Made by a program: the position numbers
Assembly (NCBI GenBank): GCA_965197905.1
Contig: CBDAOB010000005.1
Location: forward strand, 544,001-608,000
Origin: Candidatus Latescibacterota bacterium
GTDB lineage: Bacteria; Latescibacterota; UBA2968; UBA8231
Direction of reading: 5' to 3'
Length of the DNA: 64,000 bases
In this document: piece by piece, positions 30,001 through 45,000 of the stretch
How the letters are laid out: each line of letters starts with the position of its first letter
How positions within the stretch are numbered: the stretch's first letter is position 1

Positions 30001-33000
30001 ATCACGCATATAACCCTTGTTCTGTTGTACGCCATCGGAATCTCCGGCGCGGTTTCATTGCTACACGCGCAGGAAGACCGCATCTCGGGCACCGGGGAGA
30101 TCTACGAATCCCGGCCGTTTCTGCGCCAGGAAAGCCCGCAGTACCAGAACTTCGCCATTGATCACTTCGGCAACTACCCGAATCACCGGGTTCCCTACGA
30201 CGACGCCCGGCGGACCATCTATGGCCCGATGGGTGACTACCTGACTACCGGTTACGACCTCTATTTTTGGGAAGAGAGGCGAACCGCCGGTCAGGTATAC
30301 GGCAGCGCGATCTTCAAACCCAACGAGGTCCGCTCGATGCCCTGGGAGAAGGTCTACAACTCCACGGCCATCATGAAAGACGGCTATGGCGACTGGGGTT
30401 TCAGCTTCATCGTCGGCGACAACATGATCGCGCGCCTGACCCCGCTCACCCTGTCAATGGTCGACTTCAACGGCTTGCGCTGGGATCTCTCCCTGCCGGT
30501 TTTCAAGGCGACGGCGTTGGCTTCCCGTATCGAGCGACCGCATTCCTATCAGGAGGTGGCCAATCAATGGGCGATCGAAAGGACCCATTTTGCTGATGAT
30601 TCGACCGTGCTTCTGGGGGGGCGCCTGCAGGCTGATCTGGGCATAGGCAGTCTGGGATTCAACCTGGTAAACTCACACGTCTATCAGAGTACCGCCAACG
30701 AGAGCAGCCTGAGAGGTGTTCTGCGTCCCGATCAGCCGCTGATGGAATGGGTCATCGTGCGTTTTTCGGATGATTCGCCCGATGACGGCATAGGTGGCGC
30801 CAGCATACAGGACGTGGAATTGTTAATCAATGGCGAGGTTCGTCCCGATCTAGTGCCGCTGGTGGTGAGCAATCCCGCCGGCCTGCGCCCACAGGTCGGC
30901 ACGGTTTCGCAGGCTACCGGCCGCTTTCGCGCCACTAACTACACCCTGATCTCCGGCCACCGTCGTTACTACCGCGGCCGCGATGACGTGCCACTCTTCT
31001 CGGACTACTTCGTGCGCCGCGATCATGAGTCGGGTGAGGACATCAGCGGAGTCGCGAATCTCGACGGCATAGTCGCAAACTATCAGATCGAATCACCTAC
31101 GGGCATGCTGGCTGCCGACGGCGACAAAGAGATCACCTTTCTCTACGACGTGTCCCAGGAGTCGGCAGTGGAGTCGGTTGAGATCGAGGCGTTGCTCGGG
31201 AACGACTACAAGGTGGACGTGGCGACCCTTTACGAGGTCAACACTCGCGGAAAGACGTATCATGCCCGCTATAAGGCGACCTTCTACAGGACTGTCCTGC
31301 GCGCCCGCGACAACCCTCAGGATATGACCAATCTGCGGAGGGTGCGTTTCCACTTCGGCGAAGACACCGGCATATTCGTCTACAGCGCCGACATCAACCT
31401 GACGATACCCGGGGTAGAGCTGAACGGGGAGTACGCGCGCTCATCGCTCTACTCCCGTTATCCCGCGCATATGGGCGGTGCCACTGCGTTCGACACCAGT
31501 CCACGTTTCGCCGCCCGGGACAATGCCTATTTCCTCAACGCTACTCACTGGTTCAACGGTGGCCGTCTGGGGTTGGAGGCGTTTTCTCTGAATCCTGAGT
31601 TCACCACCTCCTTTCGCACCTACCTGGACGAAGAGTTCTTCAGGCACACTCACCTCCAGGGCTTGTCGAACAACACGATCTATTGGGATCTGGTGGAGGA
31701 CAACGACGACGCGGATCGACTGCCCGATCGGCGCTATGGCAACATCGTGGGTTTCACGAACGACAACCAGGATTACGATCTGGACGGGGTACACCTGGCT
31801 CAGGACGAAGACAACGACGGCTTCCCGGATACCAACCGGGACGGTGACTTTGTTCCCGACTACGAAGAGCCTTTCCTGATGTACGACGTGGAGCCCAACA
31901 TCTATTTCTACGGGTTAGACCGCAACAACAACGACGAGCCGGATCCGAGGGAGGACGATGGGCAGGTGGATTATCCGTACGATCCGGACCAGCGGGGGTT
32001 CCACCTGTTTGCTGAATTCGACCTGACGCATCAGCTCTCGGTGGCGGCGGGACATTATTCGGTGAACGAAATCGCCGGTCCCGGCCGCAACAAGAGCACT
32101 TACGGGCTGATAACGCTGGACATCCGGAATGTCGGCGATCGACCGCTGTTATTTCTGGAGAACAACCTCAGACGCGTCCAGGACGACATCCGCGACGAAT
32201 ACCTGATCATCGACGAGGCGCCGATCAAGAACCTGGAATTCAGTGGCCGCGGCCTCACGCAGTCGATGTGCTCCAACTGTACCGGCAACAATGCGGTTTT
32301 CGGCCTGCACGACCGGCCGCCGCTGTTTACCAGCCAGTTCGTGCCCGACGTTCGGAATTATCAGGACAGCTACGTCAACGAGACCTATATGGACCTGAGG
32401 TTGAATCCGGTTTCGAGCCTGAAGCTGAACCAAAAGCTTCGGTCCAGGTTCAACTGGCAGCAGGGGGGCGAGCTCTACAGCAAGACCTTTCAGCAGAAGC
32501 GGCGGCTGGACTTCTGGACTTCGATTACGAGGGTGGAGTTCACCCAGCACTGGGGTAAGCTGAGCATAACGCCCCAGTATAAGTTCATGTTTCTGCGCCT
32601 TCGGGATCAGGAGCGCGGCTCCGATCTGCTTTCCGAGATTCGTTCCATCCCGATTCTCCGGATCGAGTATCCGCTGATGTCGCGCACCTTCCTGCGAGCA
32701 GGATTTCAAGGTGTCGGTCCGTTTCCATACCGGTTGAAGGACGACACCGCAGACCGCAACAGCTACGAGCAACGCACTGCCTTCGTGACCATCACCAACG
32801 GAACGGGCTACTTCGGCTACGAGTTGATTACTATACTTGGTATCAACAAAGACCGAAAGGAGTATGACACCAGGTTTACCGACGCCCGTGACTTTGACGT
32901 TTTCTCGGTTTTTGTGCGGGGCATAATCGGGTTCTCGGAGTTCGGTCGGCCGATATAACTTCGGACGACCTATCTAGACGCTCGCCAGATTAGAGGGCGG

Positions 33001-42000: not shown

Positions 42001-45000
42001 CGGATCGTCTCCAACAGAATATTCGAGGTTCTGGCGCAGAACTGCTCCTGCCTTGCCAACCGAACCAGAGCGATGGAGAGATCGAGTCCGCGCTGGCGCG
42101 ACGAGTCGGTGCTGATCATGACAGGTCGGGACGACACATAGACTCCAAAAGCGTGGCAATGACGTTCGCTGATCCAACTAATCTCTACGATCCAGGACTT
42201 CATCTGTTCGTCGACGACTCCGAAGTCCAGGATCATCCCGGATTCATGCGCAAGGTCCAGCGTCCGACGCGGGTGCAGCCGGAACCCGTGCTGCAGCCCG
42301 AGCGACCCTGGGAGGGGAAGACGGTCCAGATCAAGGGTGGTTATCGCTACAATCGGGAAACCGATCTGTTCGAGATGTGGTATTGGACCTGGTCCTGCAC
42401 GATCGACGAGATGAACGAAGGGGCTCCCACCTTCCTCTGCTACGCGACCTCGAGGGATGGCGTCGCATGGGAGCGCCCGAAGCTGGGGCAGTACGAGTTC
42501 GAAGGGTCCAGGGAGAACAACATCGTGCTGGCGACCACGGGCGATCCGTGGGGTGTCATCGTGGATCCCCTTGAGCAGGACCCGGCGCGTCGCTTCAAGC
42601 TGGGGCTCTACCATCAGCCACAGGGGAGCCCGGGACCAAAGGACCCGACGGCTCGGCGGCGCTACATGCAGTCAGTGATCGACCGCTACGGCATGCACGC
42701 CTGCTCCTCACCGGACGGCATTCGCTGGACTTTCGAGGATACGCTTCTAGTGGGTGGGGCGGGTGACGCCGGAGTACTGGCATACGATCCGCTGCGTGGC
42801 GGATATTTCGCTACCTCAAGACGTCGCCACAACCTCGCCGATCACTTCGTCCTCGAGTGGAAGAAATACCGCCGCGTGATCGCCATTTCCAGAAGCGACG
42901 ATTTTTCCTCTTGGAAGCCGCTGCGGACTGTGCTTAAGCCGGATGAGTTCGACGACGTGGGTGTGCAGCTCTACCAGATGGTGCCGTTTGTCTACGGCAA
43001 TCAGTACGTCGGGTTTCTTTGGGTGGCTCATCCAACCGAGCTCAGCGGCATGGAGCTGGCATCGGCGCGGGAACTCTGCTCCTGGGAGCGGGTGGGGCGC
43101 CGGGAAGAGTTCTTCTCGGTCGGCTCACCGGGATCGTGGGATATGGGGTGGGCGGCGCTCGGCTTGAGTCCGCCGGCGCTGAAGGGGGACACCCTATACA
43201 TGTGGTATTCGGGTAAACCTCAAGGACACGGCACCCAGGGAAATTTCAGCAGCGCCATCGGTCTGCTGACCTTGCGCCGCGACGGCTTCGTGGCCTTACG
43301 CGCCGGAATTCGCGGCGGTGAACTCATGACCGAACCGATCGAGATCACCGGCCCCAGACTCTCGGTGAATGCGACGGTTCTCTTTGGCGAATTGAAGGTG
43401 CGTGTTATCGATGATGCGGAGGTGGCGGACGGATACTCGCTGGAAAAGTGTAACAGCCTGGTGCGCGACGATCGCGTCGATACCGTCATCACCTGGGGTG
43501 ACGATGGCCAAGACCTGGCGCCCTTTGTCGGTCGCAAGGTCCGCCTTCACATACAGACGGACAACGCCACCAGTCTTTATTCCTACCGAACGTGGCAAGC
43601 TCAGGCAAAAAGTTGCGCGACCGACGACTCGCTCCGATCACGACCGTACAGCTAGGAGCACGAAATTGATATACGACGGACATGCCTACTGTTTCCCACC
43701 CCCGAGCCAGAACGCAGGTTTTGCCGACCCGGCTGAGTTCTGGCGCTTCCTGCAACTGTTCATGGCCTGGGCACGTCAGCAGCCGTGCTGGCGCAAACGC
43801 GACCGGGAGCCGGCCGACGCAGGAGGGTTGTACGACACGACCAAGGGGGTCAGCTTCGACAGTCTCAAGGAGGCCTATTTCCGCATCGGCGAACATGGGC
43901 TGGTAGAATGGACCGTCGACGGAGAAGATTACGTCAAACAGGCGTTACCCCCATGGATTGTCGACTTCGCCTATCCAGCCGACAGCCTGATCTCCGAGAT
44001 GGACTATGCCGGCGTCGACCGCGCCCTGCTGCATCGAACCCCGTACATGGGGCTGTCCAACGATTTTATTGCCGACTGCTGTCGTCGTAATCCCGGCCGC
44101 ATCGACGGACTGGCGTACGTGGAAGAGTGGCTTCTCTCAAGCGACATGGACGCTTGCATCGCCAAGCTGGACCGGGCGATCAACGAGCTTGGCCTGGTCG
44201 GGTTGCAGTTCATGCCGTTTCACCGACCCCTGTACGGGCTGTCCGCCAAATGGAATGGGCCGGAATTCGACCCGTACTGGAAGGCGGTCCAGTCTCTGGG
44301 AATCCCGGTATTCTTCACCATTGGCGGCGGCCGCGATTTGGAGGAGTATCTCGAGGAATTGCGCAGTTTGCGGCGGTGGATGGAGCGATACCCGGAGGTG
44401 CCTGTCGTAAAGACCCATGGGTTCAACTGGCGGCTGTTTTCTGACGACGAAAGGCTGGTGGTTCCGGATGAAGTCTACGACGCGGCCCCCCTGGATCACC
44501 CCATGTTCAACATCCAGATCCTGTTCGCCGTATTCCTCCAATCCCGCTGGGACTACCCGATGCCGCAGATGCGTCCTACCCTGGAAACTATGGTTGAACG
44601 GATCGGAGCTGATCGACTCATGTGGGGAACCGACATCCCGATCGTGCTGTTGCACTGGACTTACCGGCAGAGTCTGGATTTCATTCGCAACTACTGCGAT
44701 TTCATCGACTCTGATGATATGGAGCTCATCCTGGGCGGAAATATGGTCCGTTTTCTGAGATCACGCCCGCCTGGTTCAATTGCCTGACGGGATGGGAATG
44801 CCCCTGCTCACTCGAGTGAAAGCGGATTATTGCCAAGTCCGCTGCCCCTGCGCCGGCGCCCAATCACCCCTACGGCGAGCATTAACCTCCTCTCACTCTT
44901 GCTTCCTTGGCCGATATATTCAATACCGGTAGGTGAGGTTGTTTTTGTTTTTCCGCCCCAGAGAGTTATCTTAATAGAGATCCGGCGGGACCCGGCAGTC

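Follow-up and report, generated by a model that had tools for sequence, protein, structure and literature searches.

What kind of protein is encoded five times over in a short gene cluster of Candidatus Latescibacterota bacterium, and what reaction might it catalyse? The cluster lies on contig CBDAOB010000005.1 (GCA_965197905.1), of which positions 544,001-608,000 of the forward strand were analysed (64,000 nucleotides, referred to as the window). Ten genes of the family occur in the window, five of these inside 32990-43655 (Table 1), which agrees with the five members that an earlier note had given for the cluster.

The extent of the family was established with an iterated HMM, built anew and searched against all ORFs of the genome of at least 250 aa. 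At E<=1e-10 this yielded 124 ORFs, 115 of them 430 aa or longer. When genes were chosen greedily (5,461 in all), 121 belonged to the family and accounted for 59,339 of 2,032,235 aa (2.92% of coded residues), in line with the 113 genes and 2.8% of the proteome counted previously. Another member lies within 3 genes for 53 of the 121, and the clustering noted before (47 of 113) is seen again. The earlier statement that paralogues are only ~20% identical holds insofar as identity is low overall (mean 27%, median 24%), but not for nearest paralogues, where the median is 63%. No Pfam family was matched by any of the ten window members at E<=0.01. At E<=1, Glyco_hydro_32N was touched by 9 and Glyco_hydro_130 by 5 of 48 aligned members, all below cut-off, and the sole NCBIfam match (beta-1,2-mannobiose phosphorylase) scored 18.7 bits, far below its cut-off of 450. 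None of the best 120 database relatives has a family name or activity attached. The family is real, very large and, as had been claimed, without a name in Pfam or NCBIfam.

Table 1. Features of the window, in order of position (position 1 is the first nucleotide of the window).
Feature	Position	Strand	Evidence
GHL6/GH42M-like protein, first gene of the upstream family cluster	13823-15823	+	Pfam
Three tandem family members (15864-17390, 17452-18900, 18941-20386)	15864-20386	+	BLASTP
Second GDSL/SGNH esterase	20624-21211	+	Pfam E 9.9e-15
UxuA-like / xylose-isomerase-like TIM barrel protein	21208-22227	+	Pfam E 1.7e-42
Family copy with halves in different frames	22337-23834	+	tblastn; ATG at 22337
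Three tandem ~1000-aa genes of a second expanded unnamed family	24020-32958	+	Sub-threshold Pfam SlpA_C beta-barrel matches
Family member, 515 aa, without signal peptide	32990-34537	-	BLASTP against other members E 1e-89 to 1e-108; Pfam: 0 families
Family member, 500 aa, 'type C' site pattern	34718-36220	+	BLASTP; site pattern E122, E189, Q208, H269, H291, E333
Family member, 505 aa, reference protein used for modelling	36232-37749	+	AF2 model
PhyH-type Fe(II)/2OG oxygenase, split in two frames	37641-38587	+	ORFs 37641-38219 and 38195-38587
Family member, 487 aa, divergent	38584-40047	+	Family HMM E 3.5e-92
Amidohydro_2 protein	40044-41315	+	Pfam E 1.3e-14
GDSL/SGNH esterase	41356-42141	+	Pfam Lipase_GDSL_2, E 2.3e-20
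Family member, ~498 aa	42159-43655	+	Homology from residue 244 of ORF 41472-43655; ATG at 42159
Amidohydro_2 protein	43402-44787	+	Pfam E 3.1e-22
Family member, ~512 aa, adjoining two FG-GAP/ASPIC proteins	58164-59702	+	ATG and homology

Several of these genes depart from simple ORFs. The PhyH-type gene is split by a frameshift or sequencing error; its second ORF matches PhyH at E 2.3e-7 over profile positions 139-204 (Pfam), and the first, for which Pfam gave no match, was assigned by eye as the N-terminal half. In the copy with halves in different frames, paralogue residues 1-132 align in one frame and residues 148-499 in another. The ORF that contains the last member of the cluster is over-extended, and the ATG at 42159 is its probable start. 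The true start of the Amidohydro_2 gene that follows is probably later than drawn, because the ORF start overlaps the preceding gene. The other Amidohydro_2 protein belongs to a type that presumably has a lactonase or decarboxylase role. Mutual identity in the tandem trio is 44-63%. Genes of the ~1000-aa family lie within 3 genes of a propeller member in 17 of 65 cases (P 2e-4), and a hydrophobic N-terminus is present in 33 of the 65.

The AF2 model of the reference protein (pLDDT 93.6, pTM 0.92) consists of a five-bladed propeller (~residues 30-400) followed by a C-terminal beta-sandwich (~400-505), the GH130/GH43/GH32-type architecture that had been predicted. Its best VIA match is the GH130 protein 9fj8 (Z 26.9, rmsd 2.7 A over 272 residues). 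This is followed by the GH137 beta-L-arabinofuranosidase BT_0996 (5mt2; Z 24.8, rmsd 3.5 A over 285 residues), other GH130 chains (Z 24.2-24.6) and, at Z 17-22, members of GH43, GH32, GH62, GH117 and GH159. Foldseek agrees, its top match being the GH43 protein 8hcj. The C-terminal domain modelled alone (pLDDT 94.6) finds CBM6/35-like folds at Z 7.0-7.7, and resembles CBM6/35/36 as well as the C-terminal domains of the GH43 proteins 8hcj, 3c7g and 7byv, which match it at Z 6.3-7.0. A profile of 48 members reaches 9fj8 at E 1.2e-11 and the GH130 protein 7fip at 4.3e-8, and an hhalign comparison of 115 paralogues with 12 true GH130 proteins gives a probability of 96.5-98%. A distant relation to GH130, GH43 and GH32 is supported by these results.

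Nonetheless, the family differs from each of its relatives. The GH130 proteins, including 5a7v (BT3780), share the five-bladed propeller, but the cut-off of PF04041 is reached by no member, and the genome as a whole has 0 matches to it. The propeller family also has ~200 extra residues, in the form of an N-terminal 'LFID' segment, large loop insertions and the C-terminal beta-sandwich. GH43 proteins with a CBM6/CBM35-type domain share the propeller-then-beta-sandwich layout, although the family fold is nearer GH130 and no Pfam GH43 match was seen even at E<=1 in 48 members. The general base of GH43 is an acid at the start of blade 1, whereas blade 1 of the family is variable and has no conserved acid at that point. 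GH137 BT_0996 is only 10-13% identical, with no sequence-level match. Sialidases (GH33) and BNR_2 proteins have in common with the family a conserved Arg cluster and Asp-box-like S-x-D-G-x-x-W motifs, found in four of its blades, and in the ESM-Atlas the closest clusters with a name are BNR_2 (score 0.93, to be taken only as a lead). Unlike sialidases, the family model is five-bladed rather than six-bladed; sialidases are absent from the 50 best structural matches, and the BNR_2 Pfam match is sub-threshold and confined to 1 of 48 members.

Asp-box motifs are structural in related propellers. Most of the near-invariant Asp, Arg and Trp residues listed in the earlier note belong to these four blade motifs. 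Candidate active-site residues (numbered by the reference protein) were sought by pairing with GH130, using the hhalign register that matches the structural ranges; a one-blade-shifted register scores equally well or better. In the chosen register, the invariant blade 2 Asp of the GH130 EDPR motif (12 of 12 proteins), the candidate catalytic acid according to PMC4599007, pairs with D122. Among 115 paralogues this position carries Asp in 106 and Glu in 7. It is flanked by insertions in 96 and 70 of the 115 sequences, and such hot spots fit the expectation for active-site loops. In the AF2 secondary structure, residues 115-121 form a strand and 122-126 a coil; this would allow D122 to lie at the distal end of the blade 2 inner strand, on the opposite face from the pocket.

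Among 146 distant representatives, conservation extends to D122 (136/143), D189 (128/144), R208 (141/145), R214 (139/143), D259 (132/145), D262 (137/145) and R333 (130/146). R130, K132, R214 and D259 are near-invariant residues of the family's own and set it apart from GH130. Positions 189, 208, 269, 291 and 333 covary, giving site types A (78 of 115), B (14) and C (16), and D122, R214 and D259 are the same in all three types, a pattern that reads as a single variable site set in an unchanging core. Position 208 (R 42, K 36, Q 30 of 115) pairs with the phosphate-binding Arg of the GH130 'RP' motif, and position 291 (H 66, R 19 of 115) with the His of the phosphorylase 'YHG' motif. At the third phosphate-binding position of GH130 the family has no basic residue. 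The GH130 residues that bind mannose at -1, namely the blade 1 Asn, an Arg and the C-terminal GAAD Asp (12/12 in true GH130), are not kept and pair with variable positions.

The family had been thought lineage-specific, which does not hold: its profile finds 14,204 representative clusters (50% identity) at E<=1e-10 and 4,163 at E<=1e-30. By record titles, these relatives belong to at least 12 phyla, including Planctomycetota, Armatimonadota, Acidobacteriota, Poribacteria, Dehalococcoidia, Gemmatimonadota and Verrucomicrobiota. Only the copy number is lineage-specific, with 222 and 282 first-look candidates in the two genomes of the genus and at most 82 in the 59 other searched genomes of the phylum. 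The description of the family as intracellular is right for almost all copies in this genome, but among 131 complete relatives at least 55 begin with a signal-like leader, which is twin-arginine-like in 15. An earlier count of no signals in this genome was nearly right; by a crude hydrophobicity rule ~6 of 121 members score as positive, and in three long ORFs (762-769 aa) the family domain is preceded by a signal-like N-terminus together with a FlgD_ig/Por_Secre_tail domain. An Arg occupies position 208 in 53 of 55 relatives with a signal and in all 48 without a leader; for Asp at position 122 the counts are 54 of 55 and 44 of 48.

Neighbouring genes were counted within 3 genes of a member, against a background of 10.1%. 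The strongest statistical link is to PhyH (36/120, P 7e-10), itself a component of at least 120 genes in this genome, a size that leaves the earlier ranking of the propeller family as the largest in doubt. Sulfatases (9/29, P 0.0016) and GFO_IDH_MocA dehydrogenases (14/64, P 0.004) are enriched too, as are a strongly linked GHL10-like family (14/26) and BNR_2 (13/25); AKR (8/26), MR_MLE (9/37) and UxuA (4/12) also occur beside members. The previously described association with PhyH, sulfatases and sugar dehydrogenases therefore stands, but that with GHL6 is not significant (4/25). In other phyla, genes for BNR_2, GFO_IDH_MocA, sulfatase, GHL6 and PhyH are again seen next to relatives. Further genes of the window encode hydantoinase A/B, a racemase, DAO, an aminotransferase, a PTE-family protein and OPT-like DUF6785 transporters.

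The current proposal is that these proteins form a new, putative glycosidase-like family of the GH130/GH43 superfamily that cleaves glycosidic bonds of oligosaccharides, a tentative reading given somewhat less than an even chance. It has to accommodate the loss of the mannose-binding residues, the competing hhalign register, a C-terminal domain whose Z of 7-8 falls in the range of common folds, and a neighbourhood that is partly non-glycan (hydantoinases, racemase, aminotransferase, PhyH). The same relatives could instead suggest GH130-like glycoside phosphorylases, in which a phosphate nucleophile would be held by R208, R214 and H/R291. The closest structures and profile matches are GH130 phosphorylases, as is the sole NCBIfam hint, and the copies in this genome lack signal peptides. 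According to PMC4599007, basic residues mark GH130 phosphorylases and hydrolases carry Glu at those positions; positions 208 and 291 of the family are without carboxylates, and by this rule their pairing with the phosphate-binding Arg and His points to phosphorolysis and against hydrolysis. Exported and leaderless relatives keep the same residues, which is read as evidence against phosphorolysis, since outside the cytoplasm one would not expect phosphate to serve as a co-substrate. The non-basic third position, the Gln at 208 in 30 paralogues and the lack of a sugar-phosphate mutase or similar partner among the enriched neighbours also weigh against it. Phosphorylases are considered unlikely, and hydrolysis of anionic sugars is the more likely of the two.

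A non-glycosidase carbohydrate enzyme, whether a metal-dependent deacetylase, a uronate oligosaccharide lyase or an isomerase/dehydratase, is likewise improbable. Here the conserved Asp residues (122, 189, 197, 259, 262) would provide a metal site, and the Arg cluster would hold the carboxylate of the substrate. The N-acetylgalactosamine deacetylase of Flavonifractor plautii matches comparably well (6n1b, Z 24.5 over 305 residues, spanning both domains at model residues 30-498), and 6n1a is the best single-sequence PDB match (E 0.029; profile E 1.2e-4). Its 'YHNCDADMVY' stretch, which we take to hold the catalytic His and Asp, aligns with H188-D189-T-Q-N192. UxuA, MR_MLE, SDR and 2-hydroxyacid dehydrogenase neighbours fit uronate or unsaturated-sugar products. 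Yet identity is only 14-17%, a single Asp-box stretch accounts for the sequence match, and the family conserves Asp and Arg, with few His kept across its members. The clusters already hold separate GDSL esterases, glycosidases and phosphorylases make up nearly all of the close structural neighbours, and no lyase family is known to have a five-bladed propeller. Finally, the proteins might be enzymes for, or non-catalytic binders of, imported non-glycan small molecules, co-expanded with PhyH, amidohydrolases and hydantoinase-type enzymes as a toolkit for the breakdown of dissolved organic matter. The PhyH link, the hydantoinase, racemase and transporter genes of the window and the missing GH130 sugar-binding residues favour this, but the strong structural and profile relatives all act on carbohydrates, the C-terminal domain is of CBM6/35 type, and GHL10-like, BNR_2, sulfatase and GHL6 neighbours are found here and in other phyla. 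Charged residues 90-97% conserved at ~25% paralogue identity suggest catalysis rather than mere binding. The non-glycan reading as a whole is judged very doubtful.

In the preferred hydrolase reading, the glycosidic bond would be cleaved by a GH130-like single displacement. The carboxylate of D122, presumed to lie at the mouth of blade 2, is the putative proton donor, and water rather than phosphate would be the nucleophile. The putative basic cluster of R208, R214 and R333 may hold a negatively charged group on the sugar, for instance a carboxylate or sulfate. Almost all family members and the neighbouring sulfatases, GHL6, GHL10 and BNR_2 proteins of this genome lack export signals, so the substrates would be imported and dismantled in the cytoplasm. 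If the proteins were phosphorylases, the cytoplasmic copies would conserve energy by releasing sugar 1-phosphates; as hydrolases, they would pass the released sugars to the dehydrogenases and the lactonase-like and dehydratase-like enzymes encoded beside them.

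The five-member cluster that an earlier note had given as its example is present in the window, where five mutually homologous genes for proteins of ~500 aa lie within 32990-43655. BLASTP comparisons among them give E-values between 1e-7 and 1e-108, and all pairs connect through the gene of the 505-aa reference protein, whose residue numbers are used throughout. The start of the fifth gene is placed at an ATG that comes after the stop of the preceding gene. Five further family members are found in the window outside this cluster. One of them changes frame through either a frameshift or an assembly error, and the PhyH-type gene within the cluster is split through either a frameshift or a sequencing error.

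Features of the window, and three exceptional family genes on other contigs (C3, C4) of the same genome
Feature	Position	Strand	Observation
Second unnamed family (~1000 aa)	45-3002
Second unnamed family (~1000 aa)	3046-6051
DAO oxidoreductase, DUF6785/6784 transporter, hydantoinase A and B, Asp/Glu racemase	6143-13812
Family members, three in tandem	15864-20386
GDSL/SGNH esterase	20624-21211		directly adjoins family members
Family copy	22337-23834		N-terminal third and remainder in different frames against paralogue
Second unnamed family (~1000 aa)	24020-27010
Second unnamed family (~1000 aa)	26901-29975
Second unnamed family (~1000 aa)	29854-32958
Family member	32990-34537	-	BLASTP
Family member	34718-36220		BLASTP
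Family member, reference protein	36232-37749		BLASTP
PhyH-type oxygenase	37641-38587		between family genes; two overlapping frames, 37641-38219 and 38195-38587
Family member	38584-40047		BLASTP
Amidohydro_2 protein	40044-41315		between family genes
GDSL/SGNH esterase	41356-42141		between family genes, directly adjoins them
Family member	42159-43655		homology begins at residue 244 of an ORF listed from 41472
Class-III aminotransferase, PTE-family protein	45893-48272
FG-GAP/ASPIC-UnbV proteins, two	54015-58144		adjoin family member
Family member	58164-59702
Family member, 762-769 aa	C4:1326174-1328462		signal-like N-terminus, FlgD_ig/Por_Secre_tail at residues 100-200
Family member, 762-769 aa	C3:1096664-1098970		same N-terminal layout
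Family member, 762-769 aa	C3:559734-562043		same N-terminal layout

The position of the two esterase genes beside family members hints that the substrates are acetylated. The pairing of FG-GAP/ASPIC-UnbV proteins with a family member is seen again in 9 of 80 loci of other genomes (e.g., locus L078). The oxidoreductase-to-racemase stretch and the aminotransferase and PTE-family genes suggest catabolism of cyclic amides or amino compounds beside the glycan-like clusters. At least 65 genes of the genome belong to the second unnamed family, and about half of these have a hydrophobic N-terminus. Its only Pfam matches are sub-threshold ones to the SlpA_C beta-barrel; among named ESM-Atlas clusters a TonB-dependent-receptor-like barrel comes nearest, at a score of 0.89 that counts only as a lead. 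These ~1000-aa proteins may serve as outer-membrane uptake for the adjoining enzyme clusters.

The eight intact window members served to build a profile HMM, which was then iterated against every ORF of 250 aa or more in the assembly (6.69 Mb, five contigs). It converged at 124 ORFs (E<=1e-10); their median length is 506 aa, and 115 reach at least 430 aa. When genes were chosen greedily so as not to overlap (5,461 in all), 121 belonged to the family and accounted for 59,339 of 2,032,235 residues (2.92%); the earlier count was 113 genes and 2.8% of the proteome. The reported clustering recurs as well, as 53 of the 121 have another member no more than three genes away (47 of 113 in the note). 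The low identity described for the paralogues applies to pairs at large (mean 27%, median 24% over 2,000 sampled pairs) but not to nearest in-genome paralogues, where the median is 63% (quartiles 50% and 75%); both old and recent duplications are thus present. A recent burst as the only source was rejected, since the reference protein shares 57-66% identity with proteins from Armatimonadetes, Lentisphaerae, Spirochaetaceae and Aminicenantes records and no more than 31% with the other window members. Being closer to other phyla than to its neighbours, it indicates deep subfamilies that predate the phyla or were exchanged between them. In at least four further copies the frame is interrupted by a single stop (TAG, TAA or TGA), and some of the copies with a frame change or an in-frame stop may be decaying. 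A PhyH component seeded from neighbours comprises at least 120 genes and rivals the family in size.

No Pfam family was found for any of the 10 window members at E<=0.01. When 48 aligned members were searched at E<=1, Glyco_hydro_32N was touched by 9, Glyco_hydro_130 by 5 and BNR_2 by 1, all below cut-off, and none touched a GH43 model. The best of these sub-cut-off E-values were 0.0043 for Glyco_hydro_32N, 0.0057 for PF04041 and 0.02 for BNR_2 (14.7 bits, cut-off 31.4). The single NCBIfam match, to beta-1,2-mannobiose phosphorylase, scored 18.7 bits against a cut-off of 450. With every match below cut-off, the claim that neither collection recognizes the family is upheld. PF04041 has no match in the whole genome at E<=0.001, while control genomes do match; true GH130 genes above the model cut-off occur in 21 of 61 Latescibacterota genomes searched, but not in the studied one. 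The description of every named homologue as a "hypothetical protein" is correct for the best 120 of 1,734 database relatives, which also lack a precomputed Pfam. The 30 nearest ESM-Atlas clusters share no Pfam family, and full-text literature searches turned up no account of the family.

The fold foreseen in the note, a five-bladed propeller followed by a beta-sandwich, was recovered when the reference protein was modelled by AlphaFold2 from a 48-row alignment (pLDDT 93.6, pTM 0.92). The five blades agree with secondary structure, with the spacing of the Asp-boxes and with whole-domain alignment to five-bladed chains. In a VIA-align search over 48,161 chains, the best match was the GH130 protein 9fj8 (Z 26.9, rmsd 2.7 A over 272 of its 298 residues), so the model shares the five-bladed propeller fold of the GH130 catalytic domain. 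It was followed by 5mt2 of GH137 (Z 24.8, rmsd 3.5 A, 285 residues), the GalNAc deacetylase 6n1b (Z 24.5 over 305 residues, model 30-498) and further GH130 chains (Z 24.2-24.6). Chains of GH43, GH32, GH62, GH117, GH159 and GH183 gave Z 17-22, and Foldseek returned the same families. The alignment profile also matched 9fj8 (E 1.2e-11) and 7fip (E 4.3e-8) in the PDB, a match carried by the repeated blade motif. Folded alone, the last 108 residues form a beta-jelly roll (pLDDT 94.6) in which N428 and W471 are near-invariant; the best matches are CBM35, CBM6, CBM36 and GH43 C-terminal domains at Z 7.0-7.7, a level described by the tool as common. Together, these matches give the layout of a GH130-like propeller with a GH43-style C-terminal sandwich.

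The similarity to the GH43 propeller is below that to GH130. Both GH43 and GH32 have a catalytic acidic residue at the start of blade 1, whereas the family has no conserved acid at this strand start. A sialidase reading, for which the Asp-boxes and an ESM-Atlas lead to BNR_2 had spoken, was rejected: sialidases of the BNR_2 type (GH33) are six-bladed, the model is five-bladed, and its 50 best structural matches include no sialidase. The family falls outside GH130, GH43, GH32 and GH33; it is genuine, has no name, is very large and belongs to the GH130/GH43 propeller superfamily.

The most conserved columns among 115 paralogues fall into two classes: Asp-box-like motifs and charged residues outside them. 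The former are S86-x-D88-G89-x-x-W92, S170-x-D172-G173-x-x-W176, S/T221-x-D223-F-x-x-x-x-W229 and S325-x-D327-x-x-x-W331. Asp-box motifs in related propellers are structural turns. Of the residues that the note listed as near-invariant, S105 D107 G108 W111 and S178 D180 W184 are of this Asp-box type. The charged class consists of D122 (92% D, 6% E), R130 (90%), K132 (96%), D189 (68% D, 16% E, 12% N), D197 (73%), R214 (97%), D259 (92%), D262 (79%), R333 (76%) and D399 (75%), to which Y269 (83%) may be added. The same charged set is kept in 146 distant representatives, together with R208 in 141 of 145.

The 115 paralogues were aligned by hhalign with 12 true GH130 proteins from Latescibacterota genomes (probability 96.5-98%). 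As the blades repeat, two registers score alike. The global one, shifted by one blade, was set aside for the local alternative (5-407 against 3-309), which agrees with the structural alignment (29-405 against 2-299). In the chosen register, which its rival equals in score, the EDPR Asp of GH130 (12/12; Asp142 of BT3780), which belongs to an (E/Y)-D-P-R motif where blade 2 starts, pairs with D122 (D 106, E 7 of 115). Opposite the "RP" Arg (12/12) stands position 208 (R 42, K 36, Q 30 of 115), opposite the "YHG" His (12/12) position 291 (H 66, R 19, N 11 of 115), and opposite the K/R of the "K/R-D/N" motif position 191, which is non-basic in the family. These three are presumably the phosphate binders of GH130 phosphorylases. 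The blade-1 Asn, the blade-1 Arg and the GAAD Asp (each 12/12) fall on variable columns and are not kept, the last facing R 33, S 20 and K 16 of 115.

According to Cuskin et al. (PMC4599007), the invariant GH130 Asp is the candidate acid, Asn74 and the C-terminal Asp363 of BT3780 hold the -1 mannose, and Arg89 lies at +1. The same paper describes three basic residues that grip phosphate in GH130 phosphorylases, with glutamates instead in the hydrolases. The -1 mannose binders and the +1 Arg are absent from the family in the chosen hhalign register, so by alignment it would retain the candidate acid and some of the basic site without the mannose site. The model has a strand at 115-121 and coil at 122-126, by which D122 could lie at the far end of an inner strand. 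The spacing to the next strand, the insertion hot spots on both sides of D122 (in 96 and 70 of 115 sequences) and its conservation favour the pocket side. By the same topology, strand B would begin with R130 and K132, at a distance from the pocket; we suspect that they, with D15, D197 and D399, tie the family-specific N-terminal segment and the sandwich to the propeller.

Positions 189, 208, 269, 291, 333 and 399 co-vary in three patterns among the 115 paralogues: type A (D189, R/K208, Y269, R333; 78), type B (N189, Q208, H399; 14) and type C (E189, Q208, H269, E333; 16). As D122, R214 and D259 are fixed across all three, the fixed residues may be read as the catalytic core and the co-varying ones as putative specificity determinants. 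Shared descent could also give rise to such a pattern. No clear association was seen between site type and neighbour type for the members in the genome.

At E<=0.001 the profile matched 25,291 representative clusters; a threshold of E<=1e-10 left 14,204 of them and one of E<=1e-30 left 4,163. The weakest matches probably include other propeller families. The record titles of 80 fetched loci, which came from a narrower alignment and are biased to orthologues of one subfamily, name Latescibacterota, Gemmatimonadota, Lentisphaerae, Planctomycetota (including cultured Gemmata), Armatimonadota, Kiritimatiellia, Poribacteria, Dehalococcoidia, Acidobacteriota, Hydrogenedentota, Verrucomicrobiales, Spirochaetaceae and Aminicenantes. 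Within Latescibacterota, matches at E<=1e-20 occur in 47 of 61 genomes. First-look candidates, of which at most 25 per genome were scored, number 222 and 282 in the two genomes of the host genus, and 82, 74 and fewer elsewhere. The lineage-specific expansion proposed in the note therefore concerns copy number, which is special to the genus, but not the family itself, which is spread over many phyla. On a contig titled uncultured Gemmatimonadaceae (locus L042, 3012-10184), four family genes are ordered as in window 32990-40047 with 80-87% protein identity; either the contig belongs to Latescibacterota and was mis-binned, or the genes were transferred recently. The database protein P0121 (5844 aa) has the blade motif in 60 separate stretches and looks like a very long Asp-box blade array.

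Within three genes of a member lie 537 neighbours, which sets the background at 10.1%; the totals given here are lower bounds, as clusters were seeded from neighbours, and the P values assume independent genes. Enriched are PhyH (36/120 near a member, P 7e-10), GHL10-like (14/26, P 3e-8), BNR_2 (13/25, P 2e-7), the ~1000-aa family (17/65, P 2e-4), sulfatases (9/29, P 0.0016), FlgD_ig-tailed proteins (25/139, P 0.003), aldo-keto reductases (8/26, P 0.003), GFO_IDH_MocA (14/64, P 0.004) and MR_MLE (9/37, P 0.009). Meth_synt_2, Ldh_2, UxuA and 2-hydroxyacid dehydrogenase reach P 0.004-0.04 with small counts. Of the neighbours named previously, sulfatases, PhyH and GFO_IDH_MocA hold, but GHL6 shows no significant enrichment within three genes in this genome, nor do SDR and DUF6785. 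The other-phylum loci contain BNR_2 (10), FG-GAP/ASPIC (9), GFO_IDH_MocA (8, 6 and 4), DUF6785/6784 (5), sulfatase (4), GHL6 (4) and PhyH (3 and 3), with no conserved operon partner across phyla, since the commonest, BNR_2, is present in 10 of 80. The neighbours fit catabolism of acidic or sulfated glycans and sugar acids, and non-glycan enzymes are also present.

In the studied genome the conserved domain begins a median of 14 residues after the first start codon. The note had found no signal in 113 members, which is nearly right: a crude hydrophobicity rule flags only about 6 of 121 genes, and three ORFs (L038-L040) have signal-like N-termini. In these the FlgD_ig/Por_Secre_tail, normally a C-terminal sorting tag, is N-terminal to the propeller with no intervening stop codon. 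Among neighbours, an N-terminal signal was found in 2/29 sulfatases, 0/26 GHL10-like, 0/25 BNR_2 and 0/25 GHL6 proteins. Sulfatases are normally exported enzymes, so it is unusual that in this neighbour-seeded cluster 27 of 29 lack an N-terminal hydrophobic segment by the crude rule.

Elsewhere, 36 of 95 relatives in other-phylum loci are flagged, many with clear Sec leaders just ahead of the conserved start. The best 150 representatives from a library of 1.84 billion include 131 with complete N-termini: 48 are leaderless, a 20-70 aa leader is seen in 63 (42 signal-like) and a longer extension in 20 (13 signal-like), with 15 of the 131 looking twin-arginine-like. One related ESM-Atlas cluster has TAT_signal in 34% of members. 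The intracellular location claimed for these enzymes thus fits nearly all copies in this genome but not the relatives at large, at least 55 of 131 being signal-like. The conserved residues are identical with or without a signal; at position 208, for example, Arg is found in 53 of 55 relatives with a signal and in 48 of 48 without a leader. Phosphorolysis would be unusual outside the cytoplasm, so hydrolysis or another phosphate-independent reaction is favoured; the basic cluster would then grip an anionic group of the substrate.

It is accordingly quite possible, at somewhat less than even confidence, that the family comprises phosphate-independent glycoside-cleaving enzymes for anionic sugars. 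That the members are phosphorylases would explain the basic residues paired with the GH130 Arg and His at positions 208 and 291, but the third basic position, 191, is not basic, and the same residues are equally present in signal-bearing relatives; we consider phosphorolysis unlikely. Some other carbohydrate chemistry is of similarly low probability. It is suggested by the fold shared with the GalNAc deacetylase of Flavonifractor plautii (6n1a/6n1b), in which the His and Asp of a "YH-NC-D" stretch are presumably catalytic, together with a bound metal. The family's H188-D189 aligns opposite this stretch, but H188 is not conserved family-wide. A role outside glycan metabolism, to which the hydantoinase A/B, racemase, aminotransferase and PTE-family genes of the window could point, is distinctly improbable.

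The novelty is that of a family within a well-known fold and not another kind of system. The overall interpretation in the earlier note is partly right, as the large unnamed propeller family is real, but its claims on location and lineage need limits. A wider proposal, which we regard as improbable though worth stating, is that the family is a CAZy-level novelty in specificity or chemistry relative to GH130, GH43 and GH32 and also the enzymatic core of an undescribed import-then-dismantle system in this lineage. The ~1000-aa outer-membrane proteins and OPT-like DUF6785 transporters would import oligosaccharides, which more than 100 cytoplasmic propeller enzymes, cytoplasmic sulfatases and ~120 PhyH oxygenases would dismantle. 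Glycosides of carboxylated or sulfated sugars, for example, would be cleaved, and types A, B and C would stand for different kinds of reaction carried out by a common scaffold.

Clustered at 50% identity the family exceeds 4,000 clusters, and it takes up nearly 3% of this genome's coding capacity, yet it is without a name, an assayed member or a solved structure. As the family is unnamed, standard CAZyme annotation misses its glycan-degradation potential in Latescibacterota, Poribacteria, Planctomycetota, Acidobacteriota and others. Its three active-site patterns, in exported and cytoplasmic forms, offer targets for enzyme discovery. Should the conserved Arg cluster be a recognition site for acidic or sulfated sugars, gaps in the breakdown of marine and host-derived sulfated polysaccharides could be filled by this family.
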